Shown: positions 13,701 to 44,807 of the stretch, one piece after another
Position numbering within the stretch: the stretch's first letter is position 1
Layout: every line of letters begins with the position of its first letter
Position numbers and translations under genes: made by a program
Assembly: GCA_016748015.1 (NCBI GenBank)
Contig: JAAOMT010000096.1
Coordinates: 68,803 to 132,802 of the forward strand
Origin: Geosiphon pyriformis uo1
Taxonomy: Eukaryota; Fungi; Glomeromycota
DNA: 64,000 nucleotides
Reading direction: 5' to 3'
Notes under the pieces: model-generated
The model's input: the letters and a program-made list of their open reading frames with translations, nothing else
Told to the model about the DNA's origin: nothing
Databases searched by the model: none

Positions 13701-15400
13701 GAGACCCATGCTTCCTTCCAAGGGCTAGGCACCAATTCTCTGGACAAACAAAAGTTCAAAAGCACCAGCAACATATCCAGAACTGACCTATTACAGTGTT
13801 TCCAAAGCTCATTTGAAATACCTGACAAACCAGCTGTTTTGTCATCTGGAAGATTAAAAACCACCCCAAAAAACTCATCATACTCAATTGAGCACATAAC
13901 TCCAGAAAAAGCTTTATCAAAAACATATTCTAATGGTTAATACTGGTGACACCAATCAACTGAGATATTACTGACCACCCAGCACTTTCTAGTCCAACCC
14001 TCCATGATCACATCTACCTTAGACTTAACCAGATCAGGTTCCAAAATCAATTCATCATCAACCACCAAATGATTCAGCACAACCTTATGAAACGGGCATT
14101 CCAATATACTCCTTATCATATGACTCTTATTCATTTCAAAGCTTTCCATCCTTCTGCTTATGACAGACCTGATGTTTGCCTCTTTAGTATTCTGAGACTT
14201 AATAAGCTTGGACGCCTAATAAGATTTCCTAACACCCAAAAGAACAGAAAAAACACGACCAGATTCCACACCAGAGTTCACCAAATTCTGAATGGTTGAA
14301 GCTTTAACACTGTCCAAAGAAGCCCAATGCTCCATGAGAGAAGCAAAATCCAAAGCACACCCTACACGAGACGCCTTAATAATCTTCGAAACCAGAAGCT
14401 CCAATTTGTGAAACTTCGAAGAGTCTTTGATAAAGACATCGTTGAATTCCTTGAACCATTTTTTCTTGAAAACCTTACCAGCTGAGAAAACTATTATTCT
14501 GCAAATAACACTCCACATTACATCTAAATCCGAAAGCCTCGCAGAGGCATCAAACTCATCTGAGAACAAAGTAGCATTGGCTGACGTAGCACCTTTAAAA
14601 CTGTTCTACTTAATCTCATCAGCACCCTTGAAATCAAATTTCCAATGGTCCCTATTCACTTGTCTGTGAAGAGAGTTTAACTGCATATTCAAAAGTCCAC
14701 CCAAACCTACAGCCATTGAAACAGCTTGGTAATCCATATCAAAATGCTTACTAACATCCAAAACTTCACAATTCACTATCACATCGATCAGATTTGGAGA
14801 AACAAACACATAATCAATCATCTTCATGACACCCCTAGAATTTGCCCAAGTGGGCAATTTTGAAGCTAGGCTTCCAGCCAAAAAATTCACCAGACCCAAA
14901 TCTAGACACTTTTTAAAACTTGCATATTTATGAGAACCGTCTTCATTGAAATCACCACCAAGAACAACGAAGGAAGATTCATTAACAGCTTTTGTAATGA
15001 GACAGTTGACTTCACCAGCCTAAGAGAACTGAACTGCTGAGGAAGCACCAGCATATAGTCCCAGAATAGACACCGAAAGTTTATTTCTGAAAAGTAACTT
15101 AATGGACAAGAGCTGACCAGACATTTCTGAAATCTTACACATATGTTTTGCCAAAGAAAAATTTATGATGACTACAACACCAGCACTCAGATAGCCAGAT
15201 TCTAAACCAGAGATAAACATTTATACACCATCAAATTTGTTGACAATCCAGAAATGAATCTTTCCTCTTAACTTTGATTCTGTAAAAATAGAAACTAAAT
15301 TGTCTTTATCCTTATGCCAATGAATGACATCGTCCTATTTCACAGGATTGTTCATTCCTCTGACGTTGCAAGTAGCAATATTCCAAATCAGATTGGTCAT
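10730..15400 (-). pseudogene. LINE ORF2: AP endonuclease, reverse transcriptase, RNase H and C-terminal Cys/His motif; many premature stops
   Basis: APE motifs IATCNVRG, LGGDFNE and IDYVFVS; RT motifs QKAYDSVG, GLDQGEVFSPLLW and AFVDDTIW; RNase H motifs VYTDG, TLAEL, LFSDNQ and HKVKSH...NECAD. Confidence 0.92.
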
Positions 15401-18067
15401 TGAGAAGAAGAAGAATTTGAACCTACACCAAAACTGTCTACTTTGGCCGAAAGGCCCAGAACTGTTTTTATCAGACACTTCATGCTGTCTTCCAACTTGG
15501 ACACCACAGATACATCAAAAAACACCACTCCCACAACAACCTTACCACTGGTGGCTGCACCTGAACCCTTACTCATCACTATATCTGCCCCTTAATTCTG
15601 TGATGAAGGAGTCACCAACGGCTGACATCTAGGGCTTGGCTGGGAAACCATTGGCCCAAGTGCATCCAACCTCTTAGCCAGCTTATCCACCTGCTCCGCG
15701 AGGCTGGCAATGTTATGGTTTAAGAATTTAACAAAAGAATCATAAAAATAATACAAACTATTCAATCATAATATAGCGCAGTAATAATTTTAGAAAAATA
15801 ATGATTAACATAGTAGCAAACACCATTTTGTGATAGTGGCAAGCACCAGTTCACAATAGCAGCCAACATCAACTGGTGATAGCAGCAAACACCAGGTTAA
15901 AATATCAAAAAGAAAGTATTACAATGTGTTTTCTCATAGAACTACAAACATGTATATATACAGTAGCTTTAATATTGGGAAAAAAGAAGCAAGTAATAAA
16001 AATCATAACTTATCAAGCAATAGATCCAATTTTATCCAACAAACTCCATTTTAAATCATACTTTCAAATTAAATATCCCAAAAAACCTTTAAATCAAAAA
16101 GAAATGAAAAAGAATATTTAAAACTGAATTATCACAACCCAAAGTATTAAGAAACTTACTTGTATTATTTATTAAATGAAACTATCATTCATCAACTGAA
16201 TCTCTTGGAAGAATAATCCTTGATCAAGATTATTCACGTTATTACTAATTGATAAAAGCTTTATTGTAAGAATTAGAAAAAGCACTAAAAGCCATTAACA
16301 TTCTGTGTTTCTAGATTAGAGAAACACATCAGACAATTGTAAAGATAGTCTCAAAAAAGACCCCAGACAGTGGGTAGATTTCAGTTCAGCCTCTAAGAAG
16401 GAGTACATAAACACACACAACAATCAGGAATTGAAGAATAACTTACATCACAACATTAAAAAGAAAGCCTTCAGTATAACAGTAACATTATTACACAAAT
16501 AGAATTAAGAAACTCACGAAAGACTGATTGCAATTAAAATGGGATATCAGCAATTAAATATAACAAAAAAACCATCTTGTAACAGTGAGACTGCACTCAA
16601 GAGTGGCAAACCTATCATCAATTTCCATTGAAACTGGCAGGGACAGCTCTATTTTCAAAGAAGAACCAGATTTCACAGAAACCTTTCATCCAGAGAGAGG
16701 GGGAAAAGAAGACCCACTAGCAACCTTTGCCCAAAAAAGACCACCAAAAGAGACTGGATAAGCAACTGGAGCTGATTGTTTGGCATAGATGGCTGCCAAT
16801 CTGCTTTTATTTGTGTCTGACAGAGCTCTACGCAAAGACAAACTTGATGAAACTTTTCCACCAACCTCACAGCCTAATGATGTATGGCCTAATTTCCCAT
16901 ACTTGGCACACTTAGCTGAGACAAGATGAGACCAGCAGAAATTGGTGCCCCTCAATACTGGTGTGGTTCCCACGATGACATCCAGTGATTCAGCAGAATC
17001 AAAACAGATGACAGCACACTTAGCCCTAATATATGTAACTGGATGACAATCAATAACACATGTCCTTCCACCCACTGAAACAATAAAATCTCAGATGTCA
17101 TGAGCAGTCATTCCCATTGGTAAAGTATAGAACAGTGCCCTATGCTGGTCTCTTGCATCTCATGATTCTTTGTCTAAATCCAATCTAGCTACTTGTACAG
17201 CATCCTTCCCAATTAAGATTGACCATTTCGCCGTGACCAAATTGGCATGACCTGATTGCTCAAACTCTACTACAGCTTTCTGCCACAGTCTTACCAATTG
17301 CATCTTGATCAACTTAATTATCCCAAACTTGGAGAGCGCAGTGCGCACAGCCTCAGCTGATGTTCCAACCGGAATTTCCTTCAACACCACAGCCCAATCT
17401 AAGCAACCAGCAGATTTTTTAAGATCAGTGTTTATTATGATATTCGCATCAGTAGCCATTTTGGTAGTCTTCACCAAACTCGATTTGGAAGTGAATGTTG
17501 TCCGGATGATCTCAGCAAATTTTGAGAGGGTAGAAACCCCCCCCCAAAACCATTGATTCTTGAAAACAATTTTCTGACCACCACCAATTTCTCCTGAGAT
17601 GATTTTCCAGTAATCTTGTCTAAGCCAATATCTAAAGTAAAAGATTTATGGATGAAAATGGCAACCAACTTTTTGACAGGTGTGAGAAGTGCCAGTGGAG
17701 TATCAAGAAGAACATCATTATCATTTTTGTCAAGCAAAAAATCAATCTTTCCCAATGGTTTGCCCAGTGCCTTTTTTGTTTTGACTCTTATACCCGTAGG
17801 TGTCTGATCATGATCCCCTTCAGCAAGAGCACTGCCTTTGCTGTAGTCGAAACTGGTTTCCTCTACAAGGCATTTCTCTTCCATGTCAACACTTTCAGAT
17901 TCAGTAGTGTTACTAGTCTCAAAACTCCATGAACTACTTTTCCGAACTTTAGGACCGATATTACTACTACCAGAACTACCTTCCAAAACCCTGCCTCTTC
18001 TCTTTTTACTTGGAAGAATAGGTCTGAAACCACCACCAGAAACAGAAGCTTTAGCAGCTTTCTTCAT
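15397..18067 (-). pseudogene. LINE ORF1 (RRM-like region and Zn knuckle), interrupted by a solo LTR at 15711-16584
   Basis: VVLKEIPVG...ALSKFG.I..IKMQL...WQKAVVEF; knuckle CAKYGKLGHTSLGC; homologous to 38142-39967. Confidence 0.85.
15711..16584. mobile_element. Solo LTR, family C (874 bp)
   Basis: TGTTA...TAACA termini. Flanks GCAA/GTGA are consistent with a GCGA TSD decayed at CpG. Removing the insert restores LINE ORF1 ...ATLECSLASLAEQVDKL.... Confidence 0.85.
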
Positions 18068-18347
18068 AACAGCAATACTACAGCCAACAGTAGCCTTATA
18101 GTCAAGAATAAAGAGTTTAGATTTATCATACTGAATTGTAAAAAACTTTCTTTAAAAAATTTTATGACTCTTTTTTAGGAATTTGAGACGAAGAAAAGAA
18201 AGAAGTCTATACAATCCAATTTTTTTTTTGTTTTTTTAAAGTGGTATTTCTTGATGTTTAGCTTTAATTTTGCTGTTTGTAATTATTAAAAAACTTTTTG
18301 CAGATTGATTAAATAAGCTTTGAAAGTTGGAAAGTATATATTAGTAT

Positions 18348-19051: not shown

Positions 19052-21438
19052 ATATTATTAAAATAGACAACTACTAATTACCATAAAAGTTTTTTATATA
19101 CAATATTTATAAGTCACTAGAATATTGCTGGTGTATTGCAAAGTCTAAAAAACATTATATTAAATTCATAGTTTTTTTTTTGTATAGTAAATTCTGTTTT
19201 GAAATAATTCTTAAAATCTATTTTAACTTGTCAGTATTTATTTTCTAAGTCTAAAGTTAAGAAAAACTTGGCTTTTCTTAAGGCATCTAATATGTTGTTA
19301 ATTTTAGATAAAAAGTATATATCTTCAATTATAATACTATTTAATTAACAATAGTTAACACAAAATCAAGTTTAAAATTATTAATTACTAGCAAAAAAAT
19401 TGGTTCAATTCAACCAATTTATATTATAAAACTGGTTTCAGTTAAATAACAATAAATTTGGTTTTAATAATTAATTAGTACTTCATAATAACAACTAATA
19501 GCCACCCAAACATTTTTACATTCAACCTAGTTATTTTACAATACCAGAAAATTAGAATTTTTATTATATTGTACTTTTAAAAAGTAAAACTACAGTATAA
19601 TAGTAAAATTTTTTTCTTAATTATATTATAATTTTATTAGCAAAGATTGTCAAAAATGCTAATATTTTAAACATATTTTCATTTAAATTTGAAGTTAATA
19701 AATTTTTTTTTTACTTAGCAATATAGCAGTCTTTGAACAAAAAACAATTATTACTATATATATAAAAGCTAAAATTAAAAAAAATTTATTTAATTAATCT
19801 TAAATAGTAAATCTATTGAAAGTATTATTACTTATTAATTGATAAAACAACTCAAAAAAAATATAGATTGACTTATTTAAACAGTAATTATTATAGCTAA
19901 TAATATAAAAAAAATATCAGTAGAAAAAATTAACAACTTTTTTTTATTGTTAATAAAATTATCATTCTAATCAAAGTTTTTATTATAAATATATTTTAAT
20001 ATTAAGTTCTTATTGGAAATAATTGGCTTCTTAAAGCTAATATAAATTTAGATTAGAAAATATAAAAACTAAAGATTTTTATTAAGAACAATACATTTAT
20101 TTATGATACTTTTAATAAACAATCAAAAAAAGCATTAGTTTTTGAATTTAAAAAAGAATATAAAAAACTAATTATTAAAATCTATATGGTTTTAACTTTT
20201 GGTCTGATTTAGTTAAAAAAGCAAAACAACAGCTATTTGATTAATTTAAACTATAATTAACATTATAATTAAAAAATTCTAATTAACAAATATTATTAAC
20301 AACAATAATTAAACAAATTAACAATTAATATGTTCTTTATTTTAAGCCACAATCTAAGAAACAATCTGTTTATATCTTATTTAAATACAAAAATTGTAAT
20401 AAAAAGCTTTTATTTATGGAAACTTGTATATTATTAAAAAAAAATACAAAACTTATATTTATTACTACTGTAAAGTTTATTATTAAAAACAATTTAGAAG
20501 TTCAAAATAAAGTAGAAAATAAAATAACATATTTTGTCTTATATATAAAGAATTGTTATTAGAAAAATACAATTAGATTGATGTTATAATAAGAAAAAAT
20601 GTCTGTAATTAAATTTGTTAATATGCTCTCTTTATTTTGAAAAAAGTAAAATAATGAATATTTTTTATTGCAGCATATAATAACACTCTTAATATACTAT
20701 ATTATTTATATGATGCCAAAATAATCTATAAACTGACAATAATTCTAATTAATAGAAGATTTCAAGAAAATATTTATTAAATAAAAAAGACAGAATATAT
20801 TAAATATACTATAAAATTAATCAGATCTGACTATAAAAATAAAGTAAAACTTTACTAACATCTAATTATGTATATTTTTTTAAAGAAACTCAAATATAAT
20901 AGTTAAAACAAATAAATATTCAACTTTACAAAGAATATATTATGCTTTGTAATAATATATAGTATCTCAAATACTATACTATTATTTATTGAAGATGATT
21001 AAAAAAAAACTAAATTCAGAAAAATTGAAAAAAAAGCTTTAACAATTCTAATTTACTTTAATAAAAACCAATTTGTTTTATTTTTCAAATACTTTAACAA
21101 CAATAAGCAAAGAATTAACTTAAAAAAAGTCTACAAAATTAATACAAAATATGACTTATAATATTTAAAAAATAATATATTTATCTTGAACTAAAATTAT
21201 TTACAAATATTTACCTAAAAATTGTTTTTAAAATTCTATTAAGAACAATAATACAAATTGCTTTTCAATTATTACTAACAAGCAAAAAAATTAATATTAG
21301 AAGAAAAATTATAAATATTAAATATATTAAAGACATTATAGTAATATTCCAAAATGAAACTGAAAAGCCATTTATAATTAAACATGTTAAAAAGATTGCT
21401 TAAGCTATTTATTTATTTTTAATCAACATTTTGGGCTT

Positions 21439-22413
21439 TGTTACCAGACAAAATTAGAGATATTATTTAGCATAAAATTATCTTATAATTCCTATCATTA
21501 ATTAGCATTGTTTCAAATTATTACTTATTACATTAGCAAAAATGTCCGAAATTATCATTTAATTAATAACCCAAATTGTACACAACACAAATATAACCTA
21601 ATTGCGATGATCAATCATGCAATACCCCGAACTATGTAACATTCAAAAGTTTGCCGAAATTTATAGAAATTTGCTGAAATAATTAATAGTTTACTGAAAT
21701 ATCTAATAGTTTGCAGAAATAACTTGTAGTTCACCAAAATGTATCTTTAGTTCAGCAAAATTGTAGAAAATAGCAAAGTTCAAGTTCATAGAATAGTGTT
21801 ATGACAAGTTGTATAAAAGAAAAGCTTCTCTTTTCGAGAAAATGTATCTTACTTTTGATTTAACAATTAGAATCATTCTTTATACACAAAAAACAAAATA
21901 AATATCAAATAATTCGAAAAATCAAATCCTGAATTATTTCACTTTTGAAATTAACTAATTCCTACTAAACAGTTTGAAATTGATTAGCTACCAATTTCAG
22001 TAAACTGTTAGTGACTCCAGGCCTGGATAGAAAACACTTCTCTTGACAGAAATTTTATTTTTTTTACATTTTTTTTATTTTTCTTTTATTTTCTTATTAC
22101 AATCATTAGGGTAGCCTACAGACGAGATTCCTGTAGAAGAGTTGACTTTCACAGCAAAGTAACTACACATTTCTAGTGAGCTTCCAGACGAGCAATTCCT
22201 GGAAAAGAGTTGACATTTACTATAACATAACTACATAAAAGCAACTGGCAAGGAATTGGCCATTCTACTCATAAGCCCAGCAGCTCAAATTATAGGAGAT
22301 AATTTGAGAATAAATTCAGTTATCGAAGGTTCAAACACTTCTCATAATTGTAAATTAACAGCATTACAACAAACATACAAGAGCTAAGAAGAGACCAAAA
22401 ACCTCCAGTAATA
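21439..22413 (+). repeat. 5' LTR of the family A element (975 bp)
   Basis: Direct repeat of 30322-31622 once the gap duplication is removed; followed by the PBS. Confidence 0.95.
21812..21818 (+). promoter_or_regulatory. Putative LTR TATA box (TATAAAA)
   Basis: A close match to GTATAAAAGAAGAGCTTCTCT is conserved in family A LTRs, including the diverged solo LTR (~51106). Confidence 0.6.
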
Positions 22414-22415
22414 TT

Positions 22416-22426
22416 TGGTGCTCTCC
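22416..22426 (+). promoter_or_regulatory. Primer binding site TGGTGCTCTCC (tRNA identity not determined)
   Basis: TGG starts 2 nt after the LTR end; the same motif occurs in the copy at ~3450-3460. Confidence 0.8.
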
Positions 22427-22458
22427 TACAGAAACAACACAGCAAAAACAACTTCAAA

Positions 22459-25400
22459 GTGGCGACCACACCAGACACAACAACTTTAGAGTATTACCAA
22501 TCAATTTACACCCACTGCAAGCAAAGATTCAACATTCCAGACGGAATTGAAATTGTCAAGAAATCAGTATACCAATACATTGAAAACCGCATCAACAATT
22601 ATCTTTTTGGAAATTACAATATCTTAGAAGTTAGAAGCAATCTTTACAATAATTTAGCACACTATTCACAGTTGGGAACTGAAGACCTTAACAGTGAAAC
22701 ACTTGCCACTTACTTTCACAAACTTAATTTTAACATTATCAAATACTGTGAAAAAACATATCTAGTGCAGTCTCAATACACTATTGATTTTGAATCAGAA
22801 ACAGAAACAAGCAACAAAGGCAAAAACAAATTGAAGCAATACTCAAAAACCACCCCAAATACTCCAATACTACCAAAAACAACTGCCAACCATTTACAAA
22901 CACCTGAACAAGGAACCAGTTCAAAACTTCCACTTACTATCACATCTTTTCCAGCTTCATTTGCACAAGCACAAACACCTAATTCACCCTTGAATCGATT
23001 TGCAAGACCAGAAGATTTTACATCACTCAGAAGTTCCACCAAACAACAAGAACTCCTTTAAACTAGTTCCAATCTCCTTGATTTTCTAGCTGAAAATCAA
23101 AGTAAACACTCTGAGACAGCAGCAAACAAAGAAAACAACTCTGAAATAACTGAAGAAGAATTAATAAACAGTGAAAACGAAGAAGACAAAATGACAACAT
23201 ACATCGCAAAAATCCCTGAATTCAATGGAGAAGATATTGAGACCAGTCCCCAAAAATGGCTTGACCAAGTTACTAAAACTGGAGATGCAAATGAATGGAA
23301 TGCTGCCAGAATGTTAAGAACAATTCCCTACTTTCTCAAAGGAACAACAGGAGAATGGTTTGAAAACCTGGCTGCCCCATTTAATGATTGAAATGCTTTC
23401 AAAGCAGCCTTCTTTGAACAGTTCACTGACAATAATACCTCCATTACCCTTCACAATTGTTTTCGAAATATCAAACAAAAACCCTCCAAATCTGTTATGA
23501 CTTATATTGGGAAATTCAACAAACTTCTCAAACAAATTCGCCAACTTGAAACAAATGATTATTATTCCGATGCTCAAATCTTGGATCAATTTATCACTGG
23601 TCTAAAAGATAAACTAATTAAAAAGGTTTGCCCACATGCGCCAAAAGATTTAAACTCTGCCATACAGCATGCGAAAAGATATGAAATGGCCATGAAAGAG
23701 ACCAATTGCACAAAACTTGTAAATTTGACAATTGAAGAAACCAGCTCAGCAGCCGAGAAAAAAATTGACCAACTCACAAAGAAGATTGAAAACTATTTCA
23801 CCAATCAACAACAACAGCAACCCCAAAAATATCAACCATCCCAAAGACGAAATCAAAATAACTTTGCACCACTTTCTAATAACCAGCCTCAAAATTGCCA
23901 TTACTGTGGAATCTCTGGCCACTGGAAAAGAGATTGCAGAAAGCTACAATGGGACCAACAAAATAGGAGTAATCAACATTACCCTCCATCACAGCAATCT
24001 TATTATCAACCACCACCACCAGCTTACTATCTACCAAGACCCCAATACCAAAATAACTATTATCAGCCAGCCCCACAGCCAATCCAACAGCAATACCAAC
24101 AACCACCCACACAACATTATCAAGTACCTGTTCAAAAACTGATTACATAAAATCAATTCATACCACAAAACTAATACCAAGTAAACAACAATAGAATCAG
24201 TTCGAACAACCAATTGGTTTTCCGAAATTCCACTTAATCAAGACCCAACCACTACCACACTCAACCCAGTTATTTAACAATGCCAGAAGAACAGGAGTTT
24301 CACCATACTGCACCCTCAGAAGATAGAGCTGCAGCACAACAACAAAACTCTTCTCATAATCACACCACTATTCCACCAGCCCGAATTGCTGAAAACGCCA
24401 ATCTCACTGATATTTTTTCTTTCGAGTTTGAAGCCAATGAATTACCATTTCTACTTAGCAATGCAGCTGCCAATGAACAAAAAGCAATCACGGCTATGTA
24501 CACTGAAGCAGAAGTCAAAGGAAAGACAATTCGCTTGATCCTAGACAGTGGATTCGCCAGAAGCATTATCATCTACCAGTTAATGCAACAGTTGAAGAAA
24601 AATGTCAACTGACCAGTTCAAACAGTAATCGTCACTGCCAATGGCATGAAAAAGACCCCAGTAGGAGAAATTGACAATTTTCCATTTACTCTTGATGGAA
24701 TCACCATTCCAGTCAAGATTCTTGTAATAGACGCATCCCAGTACCAAGCTCTCATCGAAAATGATTGGCTTCAAAAAGCCAATGCTAATCTGAATTGGGA
24801 AATACAAGAGTTAACAATTTCCTACCAAGGACGACATGTCCGAGTACTTGCCACTTGTAGTACATTTAACAAACGCTCTGAAAAAGCCCCAGCTTTTGAA
24901 TTCAAACCAAAAGAGAAAAAACCCCTTATTGAAACATTCATGGCACTTGGATTAACATCCAACTGGGCCAATAAAACAAAACAAGAACATTTTACCCCGC
25001 ACTCTGAACCCAAAACCTCTGGATGGAATATACCTTACTCAAAACCCGAACCAAGAAAACAATGCCTCTATATTCCTCTTAAATGTAAGGACTGCCACAA
25101 GAAACTATCGTCAATGGAAGCCTATATTTCACTTGAAGAAAAATATGAAAATCATACTTGTTATTACTACAAGGCTTGCCACAGAGAACAATAGGACCAT
25201 CTAATAAAAAGAAGTGGAAAATGGGACAACACCCCTTGTTTGACTTGTAAAGATATGCTACTGGAAGAATGCAATTGGATTGATGTAGCCATAAGAGGAG
25301 GAGTCTGCGATCAGACCTGCCAATATGCTTTATCAATTTCAGAAAAAGTAAAAAGAGGAACACCCTTTAATGCGGCATACAACAGTGCTTTCAACAAACT

Positions 25401-28077
25401 TTATCACTACCCCCATGATGCTGAGATGATTTTCGACCTAGCAATGGCATTAATTGCTGGAGCTAACAAAGAAGATGTTCGCCAAATGAAAGAAGCAGAA
25501 TACATTGAATACACCATGGAATTAGCTGGATTCGGTTATGAAGACGAAGTAGAAGTCTATCACCAAATTGCAAGTCACACCTACTCAATCCAAGAAGCTC
25601 AAATTCAACAATTAGAGCAAATGAACATTAGGCTATGTGAAGAATGCATTATGCTTTGTGATGAACAGTGATGTCCTAAATGCTATGCTCTTAGCATTTC
25701 CTTGCCCAGTGAAAATGATGAATACGAAATTGAATTTGGAGAACTTGAAGCGACAGAAGAAATTGAGACAACACTCACCTATCTCATCGAAAATCAGCCT
25801 GCTTTACAACTCAAATATTTCAACAACAATGGACAAGGAATAAAACCAGAAAAAGTTCACAAGATTAATGCTAGATATGATCTAAAATATCCAGGAAAAG
25901 ATACTCTTACTTTCAAACCCAAATCTCTCACAAAAATCAACCTCAAAATTGCCTTTGAAATTCCACTAGGAGCAATGGTTCAAATTGCTTCTCAATCATC
26001 CTTGGCAAGCAAAAGAATCAATGTTAGAGGAAAAATCATTGATGCTGGATACACAGGAGACATCACAGTCATGTTACAAAATGAAACTGATAAACCTTTC
26101 AAAATTGGATATGCTGAAAAAATTGCTCAAGCTATCTATTTACTCTTAATTAACATTTTGGGTTTACAAGTAGTTAATCAAAGAGAACAGTTGGGAAAAA
26201 GTGAAAGAGAAACACAAGATTTTGGTTCAACTGAATGTTTCACAGTTCCAGTAAACATAGCTCTCAATGAACAGAAAGAATCTTACCAGATTTTACAACT
26301 TCCACAACCAATTACCATTTCACCCTTTGGAAAACACCCTGAAATTTACATTTGTGAAAAGCCAACAACCACACAACAAATTTTTGAATCAAATGAACAA
26401 ATCTGCTTGAAACATAATATCTTGATCCCAAACATTTATATTCCAGAAGGAACAAAGAAAGTCCGAGTTACTTTTTACAATCCCAACAATTATCCCATAC
26501 TTTTATTAAATAACTTAGAAATTGGAATCATTCACAGTAACATCTTTCAACAAGAATTACCCCAAACAGTCCCCAATTTTTCTGAAATTATTGGACATTC
26601 ACTACCAAAAATCAACTCAAACTCCAGCTCCGAAAACTACCATATTGTTATGGAAAAACTATCTTGAATTAACATGGGACAACTTGAACCACAACAACAA
26701 AACCAGCTCAAGAAACTAATTGCAGATTTTGCCGATATCTTTGCCAAAAACAACAATGACCTAGGAAAAACCGATTTGGTGCAACACCAAATCTATACAG
26801 GAGATGCCAAACCAAGGCGACAACAAGCCTACCGAGTTGCTCCAGAAAGCCACCAATTTATCTGAGAAGAAGTACAACGGATGCTTAACAATGGGCTTAT
26901 TCAACTATCAATGAGTCCATGGGCCTCACCAGTGGTCCTAGTTAAAAAAAAGAATGGAAAGATACAATTTTGTGTTGATTATCGACAACTTAACAGTGTC
27001 ACTATTAGGGATGCTTACCCTCTTCTGCAAATCGATGACATGTTAGATGCCCTTGGAAAATCTAAATACTTTTCAACATTAGACCTAGAAAGTGGATACT
27101 GGTAAGTTGCCATGAATCCTAAGGACTGCCCCAAAACAGCATTCACAACACAAGGAGGAAAATATGAATTCAATGTAATGCCCTTTGGATTATGCAATGC
27201 GCCAGCAACATTCCAAAGACTCATGGATGTTGTATATGCTGGACTTCTTTGGAAATCAGTAGTTGTCTATCTTAATAACACTGATAGTTATTTCCCATTT
27301 TTCGAACTTCATTTAATTCACCTGTGAGAAGTTTTTCAACGATTATGTAGGGCAGGATTAAAACTAAACATTGAGAAATGTCATTTTGGAAAAACAAGTT
27401 TGGCCTTTCTTGGTCACATAGTTAGTGAAGAAGGAGTCAAACCAGATCCAGGAAAAATCAGTGCTGTTAAAAAGTTCAAAGTTTCACAAAATACTACAGA
27501 ACTAAAAAGATTCATAGGATTAGCATTCTACTATCGGAAGTTTATCAAAAGATTCTCGGAAATTGCAAAACCCCTTAACCAGCTCACCACCAAAAATGTT
27601 GAATACAAATAGACTACTGAACACCAAAAAGCTTTTGAAATTCTCAAGGAAAAACTGACAACAGCTCCAATCCTCGCCTACCCGGATTTCAGCAACCGAT
27701 TTTGACTAGCTACAGATGCTTCATATACTGCTTTTGGTGCCATCTTATCACAACTAGATGACAATAGAAATGAGCGAGTAATTGCTTATGCTAACAGAAC
27801 ATTAAAACCAGCTAAGAAAAACTACCCTGCCACAGAACTAGAAACAGCAGCCATAATTTGGGCCCTACACTACTTCAACCTTTATCTCAGGCCTAAAAAA
27901 TTCGATATTATCACTGATAATATTGGACTCAAATGGCTTCAGAACAAAAATACTCAGCTGAATGCAAAACAAACCCAATGGACAGGATTTCTAGCAAACT
28001 ATTAATACATAGTACATCACAAACCAGGAAAACTCCACACCAATGTTGACTGTCTCTCCAGAATGAGACAAAATTAG
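22459..28077 (+). pseudogene. ORF1 polyprotein: N-terminal extension, Gag (CA, CCHC), aspartic protease, Cys-rich domain, dUTPase, RT, RNase H; one frame, point-mutation stops only
   Basis: All ORF fragments from 22459 to 27612 share one frame. CHYCGISGHWKRDC; LILDSG; dUTPase motifs at ~25840-26235; SPWASPVVLV, FCVDYRQLN, MPFGLCNAPATFQ, degenerate YLNN for YLDD; RNase H LATDAS...TELETAAI...ITD. Confidence 0.93.
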
Positions 28078-28126
28078 AAAACAAAAACCAACACTTAACT
28101 TAATCAACCAAAAGAGCCAACAAACA

Positions 28127-29491
28127 ATGAATTCAGAAAACTACAACAATCTCAAACAATATTTGGAAACATTAACAATTCCAACAGATTGGTCTCCAGA
28201 TGAAAAACATTGACTACAACAACAAGCCAAACAATATTTTCTACACAACAATATTATTTATTATCAAAATTTCAAAAACCCAGACAAACCACTCAGATTA
28301 ATACAAGAACAGAAAAAAGAGACCATATTATACAACATGCACTCAGATTCTTCATCAGCACACTTCAGAAAAGATAGCACCACCCAAAGAACACTAGAAT
28401 ACTACTTTTGGCCTCGAATGAGGAAAGACATTCACGAATATGTCAAATCTTATAATAGTTGTCAAAAAAAAGGAGGAACACGCCCTACTGAACCATTAAA
28501 TCCAATCAAAGTTGGACAACCCTTTGACCGAGTTGGTATCAATTTAGTCAGACCATTATCTATCACCACTTAAGGAAACCGTTATATTGCAGTAGCTGTA
28601 GACTATTTTACTAAATGGCCTGAAGCCAGAGCCATTCAACGAGCAGATGCGAAATCAGTAGCAAATTTTATCTACAAAGACATCATTTGTAGACATGAAT
28701 GCCCAATAGAACTTTTATCTGATCAAGGAACACATTTTATGAACAATTTAATCCAGGAAATTTGTGGACAATTTAATGTCAAGAGACCATTATCTTCACC
28801 CTATCATCCACAAACAAATAGACTGGTAGAATAGTTCAACAGAATATTGTGTGAATCATTAGCCAAAGTTTCAACCGATTTTGAGCAAGAATGGGATCTC
28901 TTTATTCCATCAATGTTACTAGCATATAGGACACTAAAACAAGATACCACAAAACACATACCATTTGATTTAACTTACAGAAAGATGGCAACATTACCAA
29001 TTAGTTTCACAGTAGAAACATACTCAGCACAACCAATCGATAAAAACAATTTTCAAGAAACGCTTTAACAAAGAGCCTACACTCTGCTTAGCACATTGGA
29101 AGGAAAATGATGAATAGCAGCCACCCATATTGAACACTCTCAAGCTCAACAAAAAGAATGGCATGATGACAAATTGCTTCCAATCACCAATGAATTTAAA
29201 ATTGGAAACAAAGTTCTCTTATACAGAACTAAAGCTGAAAAACAATGGAGTGGAAAATTTGAAAATAAATGGGATGAACTATTCTTTATCCATGAAGTTT
29301 TAGGCAACAGATCATACAAGCTAAGACTTGATGACAAAATTCTAGCAAAAGTTGCACATAGAGATTGTTTGAAACACTATAATTCCAGAAACAATCCTGA
29401 ACCATTAATTCCACAAATTGGTACACATTCCCTTTTAATCAATCCCGAAGACATTCCCCAAAATTTAGAACCAATAGTTGTCATTGAATAG
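28127..29491 (+). pseudogene. ORF2: stand-alone integrase (HHCC, DDE core, GPY/F-like tail), with premature stops
   Basis: Starts ATG-NSENYNNLKQYLETL in a different frame from ORF1. MHSD...AHF...YFWP...SCQ; PFDRVGINLV; LSDQGTHF; PYHPQTN; FKIGNKVLL...KW. Confidence 0.88.
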
Positions 29492-29633
29492 CCTCACAAC
29501 TTGAACACTTAATTTAAATTTATTATTATAGTTATCTTCTTATAATTTAGAAACAATCTCACAAAAACAAAACAAAAATAACATAAAAACCCATGCACCA
29601 AAAATAATTTTCTTTTATTTCAAATCGCTTATA

Positions 29634-30353
29634 ATGACTATTCCTCAAAACATTCAACAATTATTCCAAAAACTAATGTTAGTTTTAAAAACAATACCCG
29701 AATTATCCATTACTGTTATTGGAAACCACATTAATTATACCCAAACAGAAGTAGTTACAAATTTAGCCCCAAATTTACAAAAATATCACCCGTATAAGAA
29801 GAACACAAGAAGTTATACTGGAATTCACCTGCCAAAACTTTTAAAACTTGCTTTAAGAGAAAATCTAATGCTCATTCCGATTAGTATTCTACCAAATGCT
29901 ACAATTCAACAAAGACTTCAACTGTGTTTCAATGAGAAAAACACTGAATATCCTCCAATTTATAGATATTTTCACATTGGAAAAACACTCTACAAACAGA
30001 AACTGGAACTTACAACAGCAAACTTCGCAAAAAAAGCTATTCAGAAACAACTTCACAACGAATTCAAGACAACAGCTGGATCAATAAACAGTCGCTACAG
30101 GCTCAGAGCTGCTCTTAGACTTTATGACCTATTCCACACCTGTGAAAACGTACTACAAAACCCAATTTTTCAACCTTTGAAAATTCAATATATTGAAAAG
30201 CTCACAGAACTGAAATTTCAACAATTTTCAGACCAATTTTCTTCAATAATTTTGGATTATTATCTGGAAATGACAAACAGTACTTGGACTTTGATGGAGC
30301 TCAGTCTTGAGAAGGAGGTTATGTTATCAGATGAAATTAGAGATATTATTTAG
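29634..30353 (+). CDS. ORF3: 239-aa protein of unknown function, overlapping the PPT and the start of the 3' LTR
   Basis: Open from ATG to TAG. Eroded homologues lie at the same position in two other copies (~45653-46370 plus strand; ~6740-7430 minus strand). Confidence 0.75.
   Translation: MTIPQNIQQLFQKLMLVLKTIPELSITVIGNHINYTQTEVVTNLAPNLQKYHPYKKNTRSYTGIHLPKLLKLALRENLMLIPISILPNATIQQRLQLCFNEKNTEYPPIYRYFHIGKTLYKQKLELTTANFAKKAIQKQLHNEFKTTAGSINSRYRLRAALRLYDLFHTCENVLQNPIFQPLKIQYIEKLTELKFQQFSDQFSSIILDYYLEMTNSTWTLMELSLEKEVMLSDEIRDII
30309..30318 (+). promoter_or_regulatory. Polypurine tract GAGAAGGAGG
   Basis: Purine run 3 nt upstream of the 3' LTR TG at 30322. Confidence 0.8.
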
Positions 30354-31622
30354 CATAAAATTATCTTATAATTCCTATTATTAATTAGCATTGTTTCAAA
30401 TTATTACTTATTACATTAGCAAAAATGTCCGAAATTATCATTTAATTAATAACCCAAATTGTACACAACACAAATGTAACTTAATTGTGATGATCAATCA
30501 TGCAATACCCCAAACTATGTAATATTCAAAAGTTTGCCGAAATTTATAGAAATTTGCTGAAATAATTGATAGTTCACCAAAATATCTAATAGTTCGCAGA
30601 AATAACTTGTAGTTCGCCAAAATGTATCTTTAGTTCAGCAAAATTGTAGAAAATAGCAAAGTTCAAGTTCATAGAATAGTGTTACGACAAGTTGTATAAA
30701 AGAAGAGCTTCNNNNNNNNNNNNNNNNNNNNACTTATTACATTAGCAAAAATGTCCGAAATTATCATTTAATTAATAACCCAAATTGTACACAACACAAA
30801 TGTAACTTAATTGTGATGATCAATCATGCAATACCCCAAACTATGTAATATTCAAAAGTTTGCCGAAATTTATAGAAATTTGCTGAAATAATTGATAGTT
30901 CACCAAAATATCTAATAGTTCGCAGAAATAACTTGTAGTTCGCCAAAATGTATCTTTAGTTCAGCAAAATTGTAGAAAATAGCAAAGTTCAAGTTCATAG
31001 AATAGTGTTACGACAAGTTGTATAAAAGAAGAGCTTCTCTTTTCGAGAAAATGTATCTTACTTTTGATTTAACAATTAGAATCATTCTTTACACACAAAA
31101 AACGAAATAAATATCAAATAATTCGAAAAATCAAATCCTGAATTATTTCACTTTTGAAATTAACTAATTCCTACTAAACAGTTTGAAATTGATTAGCTAC
31201 CAATTTCAGTAAACTGTTAGTGACTCCAGGCCTGGATAGAAAACGTTTCCCTTGACAGAAATTTTATTTCTTTTACATTTCTTTTATTTTTCTTTTATTT
31301 TCTTATTACAATCATTAGGGTAGCCTACAGACAAGATTCCTGTAGAAGAGTTGACTTTCACAGCAAAATAACTACACATTTCTAGTGAGCTTCCAGACGA
31401 GCAATTCCTGGGAAAGAGTTAACGTTTACTATAATGTAACTACATAAAAGCAACTGGCAAGGAATTGGCCATTCTACTCATAAGCCCAGCAGCTCAAATT
31501 ATAGGAGATAATTTGAGGATAAATTCAGTTATCAGAGGTTCAAACACTTCCCATAATTGTAAATTAACAGCATTACAACAAACATACAAGAGCTAAAAAG
31601 AGACCAAAAACCTCTGGTAACA
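30322..31622 (+). repeat. 3' LTR of the family A element; contains a 20-N assembly gap (30712-30731) with a 306-bp overlap duplication
   Basis: 30406-30711 is repeated at 30732-31037. 1301-20-306 = 975 bp, equal to the 5' LTR. Confidence 0.93.
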
Positions 31623-34600
31623 GCTTGTAATTATTTAAAAATCAAAAAAAACTTGGCAAAAGTAAAAGAAAAACTCAAAACTTTAAATTAATTAAATAGT
31701 TTAAAGTTTTAGTAAATATAGCTTTCAATATACAAAATAAATCTTACCAGATTTTCAGATTACCAAAAACAAATATTATTCTATTTTTTAGAAAAATTTA
31801 TAAAATATACATTTGTTTAATACCTATTATTATTTAATAAATCTTCAAATCAAATAAACAAATATGTAAAAAATATGAAATTTTGATTTCAAATATTTAT
31901 TTCCCAAAAAAAATCAAAAAAATCAAGATTACTTTTTACAATTTAAACAATTATTTTATTATATTAAATAACTACTTGGAAATTAAAATTATTTATATTA
32001 ATATCTTTTAATAAAAACTATTACAAAAAGTTTTAAATTTTACAAAAATAATTGGACATTTTCTTTTAAAATTTAACTTAATTCTTACTATTAAAAATTA
32101 TTATGTTGTTATTAAAAAATTATCTTAAATTAACATAAAACAATTAAAGTTACAACAATAAAAAAAATTCAAAAAATTAATTGCAAAATATATAGATATA
32201 TTTGTTAAAAATAACAATAACTTGAAAATTAATTTGATTTAACATTAAATCTATATAAGCAATACCAAATCAAAATACCAGTAAACATATTAAGTCTTAA
32301 AAAGCTATTAATTTATTTAAAAAGAAGTACAATAAATGTTTAACAATAGACTTATTTAATTATTAATGTGTTTATAAATTTTACCAGTAGTTTTTTTAAA
32401 ATAAAAAATAAAAAAATCTATTTTTCTGTCAACTATTGCCAACTTAATAATAATATTATTAAAATATTTATTTTTTATTATAAATTAATAATATGTTAGA
32501 TGTTTTTAAAAAATCTAAATACTTTTTAACATTAAATCTAGAAAGTGAATATTAATAAGTTATTATAAACTTTAAAAATTGTCCAAAAACTATTTTTATT
32601 ACTTAAAAAAAATTATAAGTTTAATATAATGTCTTTTAATTTATATAATATACTAATAACATTCCAAAAATTTATGAATATTGTCTATATTAAACTTTTT
32701 TAGAAGTTAGTAATTGTCTATTTAAATAATATTAATGTCTATTTACTCTTATTCAAAGCTTACTTAATTCATTTGTAAGAAGTTTTTCAATAATTATAAA
32801 AAATCAAATTGAAATTAAATATTAAAAATATTATTTTAAAAAAACCAACTTGGCTTTTTTAAATCATATTATTAATAAAAAAAAGTCAAATCTAATCCAA
32901 AAAAATCAGTGTTGTCAAAAACTTTAAAGTTTTATAAAATACTATGAAATTAAAAAAATTTACTAAATTAGTATTTTATTATTAAAAATCTATTAGAAAT
33001 TGTCAAATCATTCAACTATCTAATTAACAAAAACATCGAATATAAATAAATAGCCAAATAATAATAAGTCTTTAATATTCTCAAAAAAAGCTTATAATAG
33101 TCTTAATTATTATTTATTTGAGTTTTAACAAAAGATTTTAACTAGTTATAGATGTCTTTTATATTGTTTTTGGTATTATTTTATCTTAATTAGATAATAA
33201 TAACAATAAACAAATAATTGTTTATACTAACAGAACACTAAAACCAGTAAAAAAAATACTTTGCCATTAAACTAAAAACAGCATTAATAATTTGGGCTTT
33301 TTATTATTTCAATCTGTATCTTAAATCCAAAAAATTCAATATTATTATTAATAATATTGAACTTAAATAACTATAAAACAAAAACTTTAAACTAAACACA
33401 AAACAAATCCAACAGACAAAATTTTTTGCAAACTACTAAAATATTGTATATTATAAACCAAAAAAGCTTTTCATAAATGTTGATTGGTTTTTCAAAATAA
33501 AACAAAATTAAAAATCTTAAATACCATCCAATTTAATTAACAATAACAAACAATAAACAATAAACTCTAAAAATTATAACAATCTTAAACAATATTTAAA
33601 AATATTTATAATACTAAAAATTAATTTTTAAGTAAAAAACATTGATTATAATACCAAATAAAACAATATTTTCTATATAACAATATTATTTATTATTTAA
33701 ACTATAAAAATTTAAACAATTTATTCAGAGTAATTTAAAAACATAAAAAAAAATTTTATATAACATATATTTAGATCTTTTATCAGTATATTTTGAGAAA
33801 AATAGCACAATTTAAAAAATATTAAAATGCTATTTTTGGCTTTAAATAATAAAAAATATTTACTAATATATTATGTCTTATAATAGTTGTCAAAAAAAAG
33901 GAGAAATATGCTCCATAAAACTACTAAATTCAATCAAAATTGAACAATTTTTTAATTAAATTGGTATTAATTTAGTTAGATCACTACTTATTACAACTTA
34001 AGAAAATTAATAAATTGTAATTGTAGTAAATTATCTTACTAAATAGTCTAAAACAAAAGCTATTCAATAAGTAGATGCAAAATTAATCGCAAATTTCATT
34101 CATAAAAACATTATTTGTAAACATAAATGTTTAATTAAACTTTTATTCAATTAAGAAACATATTTTATAAACAACCTAGTACAAGAAATTTATGAAACAA
34201 TTTAATATTAAAAAACTTTTATTTTTGCCCTATTATTTATAAAAAAATAAATTTGTAGAATATTTCAACAAAACACTTTGTAAATATTAGTCAAAGTTTT
34301 AACAAATTTTAAGCAAAAATAAAATTTTTTTATTTTATTAGTATTACTAGTATATAAAATACTAAAACAAGATATAATAAAACATATACTATTTAATTTG
34401 ACATATAAAAAAACAGCAATATTATTAATTAATTTTATAGTAAAATCTTATTTAATTTAACTAATTATTAAATACAATTTTTAAGTAATACTACATAAAA
34501 AAGTATACTTATTTTTTAGTATATTGAAAAAAAAAACAAATTGTAACTATCTATATAAAACACTTTTAAGCTTAACAAAAAGAATAACATAACAATAAAC

Positions 34601-34691
34601 TATTATTAATTATTATTATAAATAAACTTAGTAGAGTATTATATTAATGTTTAATGCTCTGAATTTGAGTAAAAAAGTCATTGTTACCCAA

Positions 34692-35665
34692 TATTACCAG
34701 AGGTTTTTGGTCTCTTTTCTTGAATATTGTTAATGTTGATTTGCTGTGTATTCATGTTTTCAGAAAGTAATTGGACCTCCAGTAACTGAATTTTTCTTCA
34801 AATTATTTCCTATAATTTGAACTGCTGGACTTATAAGTAGAATGGCCAATTCTATGCCAGTTACTTTGTGTAGTTACGTTGTAGTAAACATCAACTTTTT
34901 CTTAGGAATTGCTTGTCTGGAAGCTTACTAAAAAATGTGTAATTACTTTGCTGTGAAAGTCAACTCTTCTACAGGAATCTTGTCTGTAGACTACCCCAAT
35001 AATTGTAATAAGAAAAGAAGAAAAAAAATAAAAGAAATGTAAAAGAAATAGAATTCTGTTAAGAGAAACGTTTTTTATTCAGGCTTAGAGTCACTAACAG
35101 TTTATTGAAATTAGTAGTTAATCAATTTCAAAACATTAGTTGTGTTAAGGGAATTTCAAGTACAATAATCAAAAAATTTGGGTTTCAAATATTTACTTTT
35201 TATTTGAAATGTGTAAAAAGTAATTTGTTTCAATTAAGATATCTAAAGTAAAATACTATGATAAAATACAATGAAAAGATACATTTTTTTGAAGCAAGAA
35301 GCTCTTTTTTTATACAACTTGTTGTAATATTAGTCTTTGAACTTGCACTTTTCTCTTTGCTACTATTTGGGTGAACTAAAAATACATTTTGGCAAACTAC
35401 AAGTTATTTTACTGAACTATTGATTATTTCGGTCAATTTTCATTAATTTCAGCAAATTTTGACTATGTTAAATGGTTCAGAGTATTGTGTAATTTGATTA
35501 TCTTAATTTTTATTGTACAAATCAGATTATTGATTAAGTAATAATATTTGATAATTTAACTAAATAATAAGTGATAATCAAAATAATAATAATATATGCT
35601 AATTAATAATAAGAATTATGAGGGTAATTTTATGTTAATTAATAGCTAAAGTTTTATTGATAATA
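34692..35665 (-). mobile_element. Solo LTR, family A (974 bp)
   Basis: Homologous to 3463-4390; flanks CCAA/TCAA; no PBS or PPT adjacent. Confidence 0.88.
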
Positions 35666-35754
35666 TCAAGTAGAAAAACCGATCCAAAATTATGAAGAAA
35701 CATGACCAAAATGTGACATAATACAGAATAGTATGCAATAATGTTGGATAATGT

Positions 35755-43900: not shown

Positions 43901-44807
43901 CTCTGGTGTCAAAATTGTGGACAGTCATCTGCTTCCAAATGTTGATTGGTCTAGATCGTCCTTTGTTTGGCATTCTGACTCTCATATGGCTGCTGGCTTT
44001 ACGAGTCGCCACTCTGCTGGCTTCTGTTCTTATTTTATAAAAGCTTTACATTATAGACTGCCTGTTGCTGTTTGCAAATGTCTCTATGATAAATATTACC
44101 CCAGTGTGGTGTGTTTGTATTGTGATGATGTTGAAGTGTCAGACCATGTGTTTTTTTGTGCATTTAATGCAGCTGTTTGGCTCCAATTGTTTGTTGATTT
44201 TGTTTCTGCTTGAAGAGTTGTTTCTGGTCTATTCCATGTTTCATCTTTTGTGTTACAAATGTTATCTAATTGTTTGACTGATTTGGATCTGGTTGCTTCT
44301 CTGTGCAAAAGTTTTGTGCTCGTGGATTGGTACCAGGAGGCCACTTCTTGCTTTGATGACTCTAAAACTGCATCTGATAAGGTGGTTGAGTTTGTTCGCA
44401 GTTTGTGCTTGTCTTTTAGGAATGATATTTGGCTGGTCTGTTCTAAACATCTAGCTTTTATAAAGAAACACAGTTTGATCCCTTATGATGATTTGATTCC
44501 TGTCTCAGTATCTGGTAGCATGTCAATGCTTTTGGCCCATGTAATTAGACTGCTTGGTATTGATGATGTGTTTGGTGTTAGTTTTGGGTTGCATAGTTCT
44601 TGTTGGTTTTTTTTAGGTATAGGTGATTTGGTTTTTGTGTCCATGTGTGTATAATGTAGTCCTGGTTGGCTTGAGTAGCTAGTTATATATAGTAAAAGCA
44701 TGATTCACATTTAGTATAGATCATTATTTTAATGTATTGTTACTAGGCAGTGTTTGGACTTCACTCATTAAACTTAATAAAAAATAAAATAAAAAAATAA
44801 AATAAAA
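37950..44807 (+). mobile_element. Near full-length LINE, a related but distinct family from 10597-18227 (ORF1 ~38142-39967, ORF2 39967-44654, A-rich tail); pseudogenised
   Basis: APE motifs IATYNVR and LGGDFNE; RT motifs RKVYNSIGW and LDQGKVFSSLLW; RNase H VYTDGS...LAELQAIALALE; C-terminal CLYCDD...HVFFC. The 5' boundary is approximate. Confidence 0.92.

Follow-up and report, generated by a model that had tools for sequence, protein, structure and literature searches.

A long terminal repeat (LTR) retrotransposon in the glomeromycotan fungus Geosiphon pyriformis encodes its integrase (IN) outside Pol. The element lies on the forward strand at positions 21439-31622 of a 64,000-nucleotide stretch of strain uo1 (assembly GCA_016748015.1, contig JAAOMT010000096.1, positions 68,803 to 132,802). 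This whole stretch is called the window, and positions refer to it unless a locus is named. The Gag-Pol frame ends after RNase H (RH), IN follows as an open reading frame (ORF) with its own AUG, and a third frame, ORF3, spans the polypurine tract and ends inside the 3' LTR. The split arrangement is almost certainly real and ancestral, and not a product of decay. Elements that share it probably constitute one large, diverse, Ty3/Gypsy-derived lineage of Mucoromycota fungi, to judge from their sequences. We put at roughly 0.6 the probability that this lineage expresses separate IN and ORF3 proteins from one polycistronic RNA, by means of weak starts and ribosome re-entry. The basis for this reading is the layout itself, its conservation in intact relatives, the grouping of reverse transcriptases (RTs), an AUG-free leader, and a Kozak-like context at the IN AUG. 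Within the literature searched, the lineage is apparently an undescribed but real variant of Ty3/Gypsy elements.

As in canonical Ty3/Gypsy elements, direct LTRs of the TG...CA type (ends TGTTACCAGA and TCTGGTAACA) are flanked by a short target duplication, and the domains are ordered protease (PR), RT, RH, and IN. A putative primer-binding site that begins TGG and a purine tract lie next to the LTRs. Gag, RT, RH, and IN are of Gypsy type by Pfam, and the closest solved match is Ty3 Gag-Pol (7q5b; E = 2.6e-88 for RT-RH and 4.5e-47 for IN). In Ty3, however, RT-RH (590-1008) and IN (1065-1449) belong to one chain, whereas here a stop, a spacer, and a new AUG intervene, and ORF3 follows. As an earlier interpretation of the window, made without database searches (the sequence-only reading), had stated, a stop follows RNase H and IN is its own ORF; this is so in all three window copies of the family and in all 46 informative relatives. 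Because IN is outside Pol, the element is filed as a member of a derived variant lineage and not as a canonical Ty3/Gypsy element.

The junction is well conserved among copies. The IN AUG (28127) is in the +1 frame relative to the Pol stop (TAG, 28075-28077), and the three window copies end Pol at the same codon, with diverged spacer sequences. A genome-wide view was provided by 1,139 contigs of sequencing run X1; runs X2 and X3 gave no cover. Because X1 is possibly the window's own sample, its contigs serve as a view of other copies and not as independent support. Among 40 of 44 rows of variants, none was listed at the stop or at the AUG (28127-28129), and of the nearby decay stops, that at 28003 varies in 59% of contig depth and that at 28211 in 42%. 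In contigs of other subfamilies, divergence sets in right after the stop and right before the AUG. An in-frame AUG four codons ahead of the Pol stop (28062-28077), likewise without a listed variant, could act as a short upstream ORF that ends 49 nucleotides before the IN AUG.

Homologues of IN show the same start. With the query and the best 120 of 746 homologues (249-795 amino acids, from a search blind to fused forms), 98 of 121 rows begin at the query's column, and 118 have Met. Named homologues include proteins of Rhizophagus irregularis and R. clarus. No chromodomain was found at E 0.1 in the last IN segment, nor among the precomputed domains of the 120 homologues.

A metagenome scan provided 80 loci, of which 46 hold both RNase H and the start of IN, and 34 miss one side. 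None of the 46 is fused, and the Pol stop always lies before or across the IN AUG. The distance from stop to AUG ranges from -20 to +727 nucleotides, with the three frames represented 13, 21, and 12 times. It is within 30 nucleotides in 19 loci, 31-100 in 18, and longer in nine, and is thus at most 100 in 37 of 46. Overlaps of stop and start recur (-8, -11, -14, and -1), including UAAUG in L016 and L021. The rows of L038 (an internal stop) and L074 (an overlap) were set right in these counts. The loci comprise 43 clusters at 90% IN identity and 29 at 70%. Among them are several elements, complete or in circular permutation, whose frames are long and unbroken, and intact relatives with unbroken Pol frames of 1,100-1,600 codons retain the stop. 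No relatives were found in the viral contig collection.

As a control without length limits, RT-RH was searched against 1.84 billion representatives, and 95 multi-stretch rows were dropped from the best 150. Forty of the remaining 55 single-stretch matches run on into IN, six end at most 40 residues past RNase H, and nine are unclear. An RT phylogeny, which had been proposed with the sequence-only reading as a check, bore out the grouping of split elements. It is a midpoint-rooted FastTree tree of 29 split loci, the target, and rows of the 55 proteins, made with no test of one clade and without named Gypsy clade references (Ylt1, SN_1006, and others). One branch, with SH-like support of 100, holds all 30 split rows, five of the six RNase H-ending proteins, and one fused protein, versus 49 other rows; the split group is set apart from 39 of 40 fused-Pol elements. 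Distances in RH and in IN are correlated (rho 0.58, Mantel p 0.001, 37 rows), which speaks against IN having been inserted late; by RH, IN, and ORF3 alike, the closest relative is L001. One RNase H-ending protein belongs to Calcarisporiella thermophila, and the lineage may therefore extend past Glomeromycotina.

The 5' region of the element is devoid of AUG over a long distance. After the last upstream AUG at 21842, the leader has none, versus about 13 expected (5.2 + 8.2). A codon shuffle of 22414-23190 gives P = 0.002 for zero AUGs, and AUG counts are as expected in seven control stretches of the element. A Met-free in-frame stretch (22414-23190) precedes the Gag AUG at 23191, as the sequence-only reading had noted, and recurs in the copy at 1-4390 (76% and 62% identity). 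The conserved part of this extension opens at GTG 22459 in the context AAAGTGG. The G at 22459 is present in about 98% of contig depth, and the residue at this position among predicted paralogues is Val in 60 and Met in 15. The conserved GUG is the likely start of a longer Gag. By analogy with the glyco-Gag of murine leukemia virus (MLV) and with rice tungro bacilliform virus (RTBV), the layout would allow leaky scanning to yield a long and a short Gag. In nine of 19 relatives, the first AUG is weak (seven) or absent (two), 470-1,150 nucleotides are AUG-free, and a later AUG, mostly in strong context, precedes the capsid (CA). A long AUG-free region with a weak or non-AUG first start is of the Caulimoviridae type, as a sequence signature only.

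The extension has no Pfam match, and its named homologues, like those of ORF3, are all G. pyriformis proteins, one of them 100% identical. A different N-terminal Gag domain occurs in relatives (L023:328-780, L059:505-1000, L024:227-700, L021:520-1000, L042:6804-7250, L049:6344-6800, and L050:4651-5100). It has a conserved His, CxxC, and FxxFWxW, belongs to no Pfam family, and possibly binds zinc. No kinship between this His/Cys domain and the extension was detectable (hhalign probability 0.5%).

The IN AUG usually is in a favorable context, with a purine at -3 in 40 of 46 loci and G at +4 in 35 of 46. AUG is scarcer than expected in the last 60 nucleotides before IN (21 of 56 spacers versus 32.7 when shuffled), and AATAAA also is scarce just upstream. 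The Pol stop shows neither a constant frame nor a readthrough signal across relatives.

A covarying RNA motif of 37 nucleotides is found directly before the IN AUG in 18 of the 80 loci, all in one IN subclade. The motif comprises a 6-bp covarying stem, a CANNGYGA loop, and a conserved 12-nucleotide bulge. All six pairs form in 18 of 18 loci, six of eight pairs are changed on both sides, and the motif ends -1 to 8 nucleotides before the AUG in 16 of 17 loci measured. Thirteen of the 18 loci trained the model, and the central pairs were initially chosen for pairing; a purely sequence-based pattern recovers the same 18 loci, all with 6/6 pairs. There was no Rfam match at E up to 1 (eight loci, five of them carriers), and the pattern had no exact match in the viral and genome contig collections. 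Two GUGA(A) segments of the motif presumably resemble T-loop motifs.

ORF3 was described in the sequence-only reading as an orphan that enters the 3' LTR. The frame is indeed intact and its last 32 nucleotides are in the LTR, but it is no orphan, because other elements have distant relatives of it at the same place. Close homologues number 196, and the best 120 of them are without exception G. pyriformis copies. A profile made from relatives only, without Geosiphon and L001, recovers the ORF3 of L001 (E = 0.0012) and that of the element (E = 0.01) among 1,258 ORFs, and further new matches down to E 0.01 are at the ORF3 position. An ORF3 homologue follows IN in 24 of 39 loci with at least 600 nucleotides downstream, most of these being training-set rows, and homologues usually end at the purine tract. 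By these profiles, ORF3 is a member of a lineage-wide helical family.

The core of ORF3 is predicted to be a compact helical domain (pLDDT 95 for L023 and 76 for the element's protein). Pfam gave nothing beyond a weak DUF1016_N match (one of 27 rows, E = 0.037), there was no PHROG family or PDB sequence match, and the models had no Foldseek match in PDB or BFVD. A fold comparison with VIA gave a best Z of 4.7 and scattered weak helix-turn-helix matches. ORF3 matched neither the transactivator protein TAV of cauliflower mosaic virus (CaMV) nor any known family or fold in Pfam and the structure searches. The models show compact helical folds of a soluble kind, without an env counterpart in Pfam, PDB, or BFVD, and our guess is that ORF3 may be a soluble, basic regulator. 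The survival of an intact ORF3 here does not reach significance (P about 0.10), which leaves no case for host domestication. In L011 (1945-2886), a NUDIX-domain ORF (E = 1.4e-10) takes the place of ORF3 after IN. L021 has an extra coiled-coil-like ORF (7458-8258) between IN and the ORF3 homologue, for four ORFs in all, and in L039, a circularly permuted contig, the homologue (3-602) is ahead of Gag. Small ORF3-like proteins may, we presume, account for many unannotated genes of mycorrhizal fungi.

How these parts might work together can be proposed, and we hold the mechanism as a whole, which is read from sequence, at even odds. Quite likely, ribosomes move along the AUG-free leader by scanning; most reach AUG 23191, and a few initiate at GUG 22459 to give an N-extended Gag-Pol. 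Ribosomes that finish Pol, or are recruited just upstream, might then start at the IN AUG and make a little IN; the chances for and against this step appear equal. The arrangement would vary by subclade, with a stop/start overlap, a short unstructured spacer (as in this element), or a structured RNA motif directly next to the AUG. Somewhat more tentatively, free IN would meet the cDNA ends after reverse transcription, and packaging through Gag-Pol would not be needed. Ty1 IN, when expressed ectopically, reaches the nucleus and in vivo integrates DNA that is not in particles (PMC2939329), so packaging of IN may be dispensable, and the separate packaging route for IN that had been claimed earlier is not demanded by the evidence. 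The last step is doubtful: ORF3 might be a soluble regulatory protein of the element, most likely one that binds nucleic acid.

An ambitious extension of this scheme is improbable. It would make the elements a fungal Metaviridae lineage that as a whole has given up polyprotein processing of integrase for a pararetrovirus-like translation programme on one RNA, in which two Gags arise by leaky scanning, the level of RT is set by readthrough or frameshifting, RNA elements of a new class bring ribosomes to the IN AUG, and ORF3 is either a reinitiation factor (a counterpart of CaMV TAV) or an adaptor from IN to the particle.

The origin of the split admits other explanations. The element itself is a dead copy, killed by mutation: 14 stops interrupt the 1,628 Gag-Pol codons and six the 454 IN codons, the RT motif reads YLNN, and the LTRs differ by 35 substitutions, every one a transition, and one indel (891 columns). 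Twenty internal stops and an exclusive pattern of transitions between the LTRs would suit C>T/G>A decay of an ordinary Gag-Pol-IN element as the source of the split, the Met-free extension, and ORF3. However, the intact relatives keep the stop, stop and AUG are invariant among the listed contig variants, G>A changes would make ATG from GTG and not the reverse, and ORF3 is common to relatives. For the split, the absence of fusion in 46 loci, the lack of listed contig variants at stop and AUG, and the RT tree grouping refute an origin by decay, and the probability left to decay as a whole is minute. The sequence-only reading had taken these for family traits, which stands, and the split reaches far wider than the family. 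Hardly more credible is the insertion of a Ginger-like DNA transposon or host cassette, carrying IN and ORF3, into an integrase-less retroelement. Stand-alone Gypsy-type integrases are known as Ginger DNA transposons (PMC2836005), but those lie alone between terminal inverted repeats without RT. Here no terminal repeats surround IN, and inside the LTRs IN is always found after RNase H; distances in RH and IN are correlated, L001 is nearest in both, and the polypurine tract is carried by ORF3.

Given a real split, IN could be made by reinitiation or internal entry, for which the odds appear even, or from a subgenomic RNA, which is less likely; subclades may differ. Subgenomic RNAs, either spliced or from internal promoters, would provide both IN and ORF3 and leave the layout as it is. 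Long spacers holding many AUGs, the Kozak-like IN AUG, and the restriction of AUG scarcity to the last 60 nucleotides all fit with this, and foamy virus pol is expressed from a subgenomic RNA, as are env and other third frames of three-ORF LTR elements. ORF3s of LTR elements also typically come from spliced messages (PMC5408684). Yet neither a branch point with YAG nor TATA is enriched in the 60, 100, or 150 nucleotides before the IN AUG (54-56 loci), and a separate mRNA needs none of the close junctions seen in 19 of 46 loci (stop and start within 30 nucleotides) or the recurrent overlaps. It is far less probable that readthrough, frameshifting, or a hop at the junction fuses IN to Pol and that IN is packaged as usual. 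One fused protein does fall within the split group, and of nine in-frame stops examined in relatives, within RT-RH or upstream of it, eight stand in a UGA-CUA or UAG-CAA-UUA context, which are readthrough motifs (PMC3542737). In contrast, none of the 46 Pol-terminal stops has such a context, three frames and gaps of up to 727 nucleotides occur, and the IN Met is kept at one column in a Kozak context. The claim that the split IN, ORF3, and the Met-free extension need non-canonical expression is upheld. The likeness to complex retroviruses, also claimed, is not borne out by env or spliced-mRNA evidence, and translation in plant pararetroviruses is the closer analogy.

Several observations weigh against expression of IN and ORF3 from one RNA in a single lineage. 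The 80 loci were fetched with patterns from stand-alone integrases, which biases them toward split elements. In the midpoint-rooted FastTree tree, the fused protein P0538 is inside the split group and the RNase H-ending P0522 outside it. P0538 has a very short linker between RH and IN and may either retain the ancestral state or have been fused again. Taken over all spacers, AUG depletion is very slight (40 seen versus 45-51 expected), and long spacers are rich in AUG: L008 has seven in 365 nucleotides, L029 eight in 521, and L059 12 in 727. Forward scanning from the Pol stop therefore cannot serve those loci. The LINE-1 spacer of 63 nucleotides is a precedent for gaps longer than about 30 nucleotides. 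Reinitiation of the type that uses a ribosome-binding site upstream of termination (TURBS) reaches roughly 30 nucleotides and is indifferent to Kozak context; the element's 49-nucleotide gap exceeds that range (PMC10275272). The good context at the IN AUG fits a subgenomic mRNA equally. The RNA motif is absent from the element and has no match within the window, and energy folding of one example failed to recover the stem (z = -0.62). The leaky-scanning layout is missing in 10 of 19 relatives, the copy at 1-4390 has three ATGs in the interval that matches the AUG-free leader, and transversions by codon position are 22/12/25 in the extension versus 45/40/125 in Gag-Pol, which suggests that selection on the extension is weak. 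Finally, 15 of the 39 loci with at least 600 nucleotides after IN have no ORF3 match.

Gag-Pol has the order CA, zinc knuckle, PR, Cys-rich block, dUTPase, RT, and RNase H. The sequence-only reading had singled out the Cys-rich block and dUTPase between PR and RT; both are present in three window copies, but a dUTPase there was already published (PMC2864245). It is found in PosPlaTy3-5 and in the Pol of fungal Gypsy elements of Tuber melanosporum and Phanerochaete chrysosporium (PMC2864245, PMC6431247). The available parts of those papers mention no split IN, and a Cys-rich block precedes the dUTPase here. The block has no Pfam match. Neither domain had a match in the 80 metagenomic loci, many of whose contigs do not cover the region, and among the loci examined, dUTPase at this position is confined to the element's own family.

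Pol also varies in relatives. In L022, L023, L038, L042, L049, L050, and L059, it is longer by 235-586 residues after RNase H, which include an acidic stretch and a cluster of Cys and His and lead to the stop that precedes IN. In-frame stops with a UGA-CUA or UAG-CAA-UUA context occur between Gag-PR and RT in L008:870, L009:2882, L024:3290, L027:902, L059:3358, L069:1585, and L063:929, and between Gag and PR in L039:3552. Their contexts suggest that these stops are likely programmed readthrough sites. L021 and L004 have a change of frame from Gag to Pol in place of an in-frame stop.

Known systems share parts of this organization. Caulimoviridae have a polycistronic RT-encoding RNA with a non-AUG first start, about 900 AUG-free nucleotides, and reinitiation at downstream ORFs, including leaky scanning in RTBV and TAV-driven reinitiation in CaMV (PMC3542737, PMC10275272), but they lack integrase and LTR integration. 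In Cryphonectria hypovirus 1 (CHV1), Helminthosporium victoriae virus 190S (HvV190S), and SART1, a downstream enzyme ORF starts at or near the stop of a long ORF (PMC10275272). Those are RNA viruses or non-LTR elements, with polymerase following capsid or ORF1 at the junction rather than integrase following RNase H, whereas gaps in the lineage described here vary from -20 to +727 nucleotides. MLV glyco-Gag also is an in-frame N-terminal Gag extension from a non-AUG codon (PMC3542737), but its codon is CUG and not GUG, and the element is not a retrovirus. Three-ORF LTR elements of bdelloid rotifers have an extra ORF after IN, and some lineages have dUTPase; their ORF3s, however, encode esterases, exonucleases, or env-like proteins, and IN remains part of Pol (PMC5408684). 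No account of a Gypsy lineage with a separate IN ORF was found in the literature searched, to which subscription papers, supplements, Repbase, GyDB, and Dfam did not belong. Such an ORF is not described in the available parts of surveys of fungal LTR elements (PMC3248453), Gypsy diversity (PMC2774666), or mycorrhizal transposable elements (PMC11952901; bioRxiv 2021.03.30.436303).

Table 1. Features of the element, in window positions, and loci that carry the RNA motif
Feature	Position	Strand	Remarks
Left target-site duplication, GCTT	21435..21438		4 bp; right copy 31623-31626; from sequence
5' LTR	21439..22413	+	975 nt; 96% alike vs 3' LTR
Six imperfect-palindrome units, TTCGCCGAA type	21647..21760	+	12-13 nt each, 20-21-nt period
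TATA-like box	21812..21819	+	putative start site about 30 nt downstream
AUG-free leader	21845..23190	+	1,346 nt, no ATG in any frame
Primer-binding site, putative	22416..22433	+	begins TGG, 2 nt past 5' LTR; from sequence
In-frame Gag N-terminal extension	22459..23190	+	244 codons, likely start GUG 22459
Gag-Pol, single frame without integrase	23191..28077	+	stop TAG 28075-77
Cys-rich block, between PR and dUTPase	25050..25750	+	62% identical in copy 1-4390
dUTPase domain	25864..26232	+	PF00692, E = 2.5e-14
Spacer from Pol stop to IN AUG	28078..28126	+	49 nt, A/C-rich, unstructured, AUG-free
Integrase, own ORF	28127..29491	+	454 codons; H2C2, rve, weak SH3-type C-terminus
ORF3	29634..30353	+	239 aa, intact, helical core; last 32 nt inside 3' LTR
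Polypurine tract	30309..30318	+	inside ORF3, 3 nt ahead of 3' LTR; from sequence
3' LTR	30322..31622	+	contains 20-N gap 30712-30731 and artefactual 306-nt duplicate
RNA motif carriers	L007, L013, L017, L022, L023, L026, L035, L037, L038 (5708-5751)
RNA motif carriers, further	L042, L044, L045, L046, L050, L053, L061, L071, L080

The extra 306-nucleotide copy in the 3' LTR is taken as an assembly artefact because it is 100% identical and flanks a 20-N gap. The palindrome array in the LTR, which the sequence-only reading had interpreted as covarying hairpins, is a direct-repeat array. Compared with shuffled sequences, four copies of it showed no better folding (z = -0.04 to -0.79), and they yield differing structures; RNA hairpins in the LTR were rejected on these grounds. 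The repeats are likely factor-binding sites in U3. Short units in tandem are also seen in L038, L050, L051, L059, and L074, in their non-coding or 3' parts. A search of the element against Rfam gave no credible match.

The element sits within the dUTPase region of an older copy of its own family (19374-21438 and 31640-34585). Other pieces of the family in the window are at 1-4390, 5941-10594, 34686-35666, 45187-47060, and 50759-51592. By eye, decayed non-LTR-like elements with endonuclease- and RNase H-like motifs are seen at 11000-18150 (reverse strand) and 38290-44650 (forward strand), with fragments of similar elements at 7691-8332, 10730-11203, and 57500-57961. A tandem repeat with a 57-nucleotide period occupies AT-rich DNA at 53739-54052, and 62055-63473 holds exons that we take to resemble those of an RNA polymerase second-largest subunit.

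That integrase belongs to Pol holds nearly as a rule among LTR retrotransposons and retroviruses, since this arrangement sets how much IN is made and brings it to the particle. LTR elements overall, and not this lineage alone, cover 41% of the G. pyriformis genome (PMC11952901). A lineage that departs from this rule and is large, diverse, and apparently successful would provide a natural system for asking whether IN must be co-packaged, and it also bears on how fungi translate internal ORFs that follow long ones. The lineage further offers an unclassified RNA motif at a start codon and, in ORF3, a candidate for a new protein fold. Stand-alone "integrase" and "hypothetical" genes in mycorrhizal genomes may be parts of these elements, which pipelines that demand IN within Pol would call broken.

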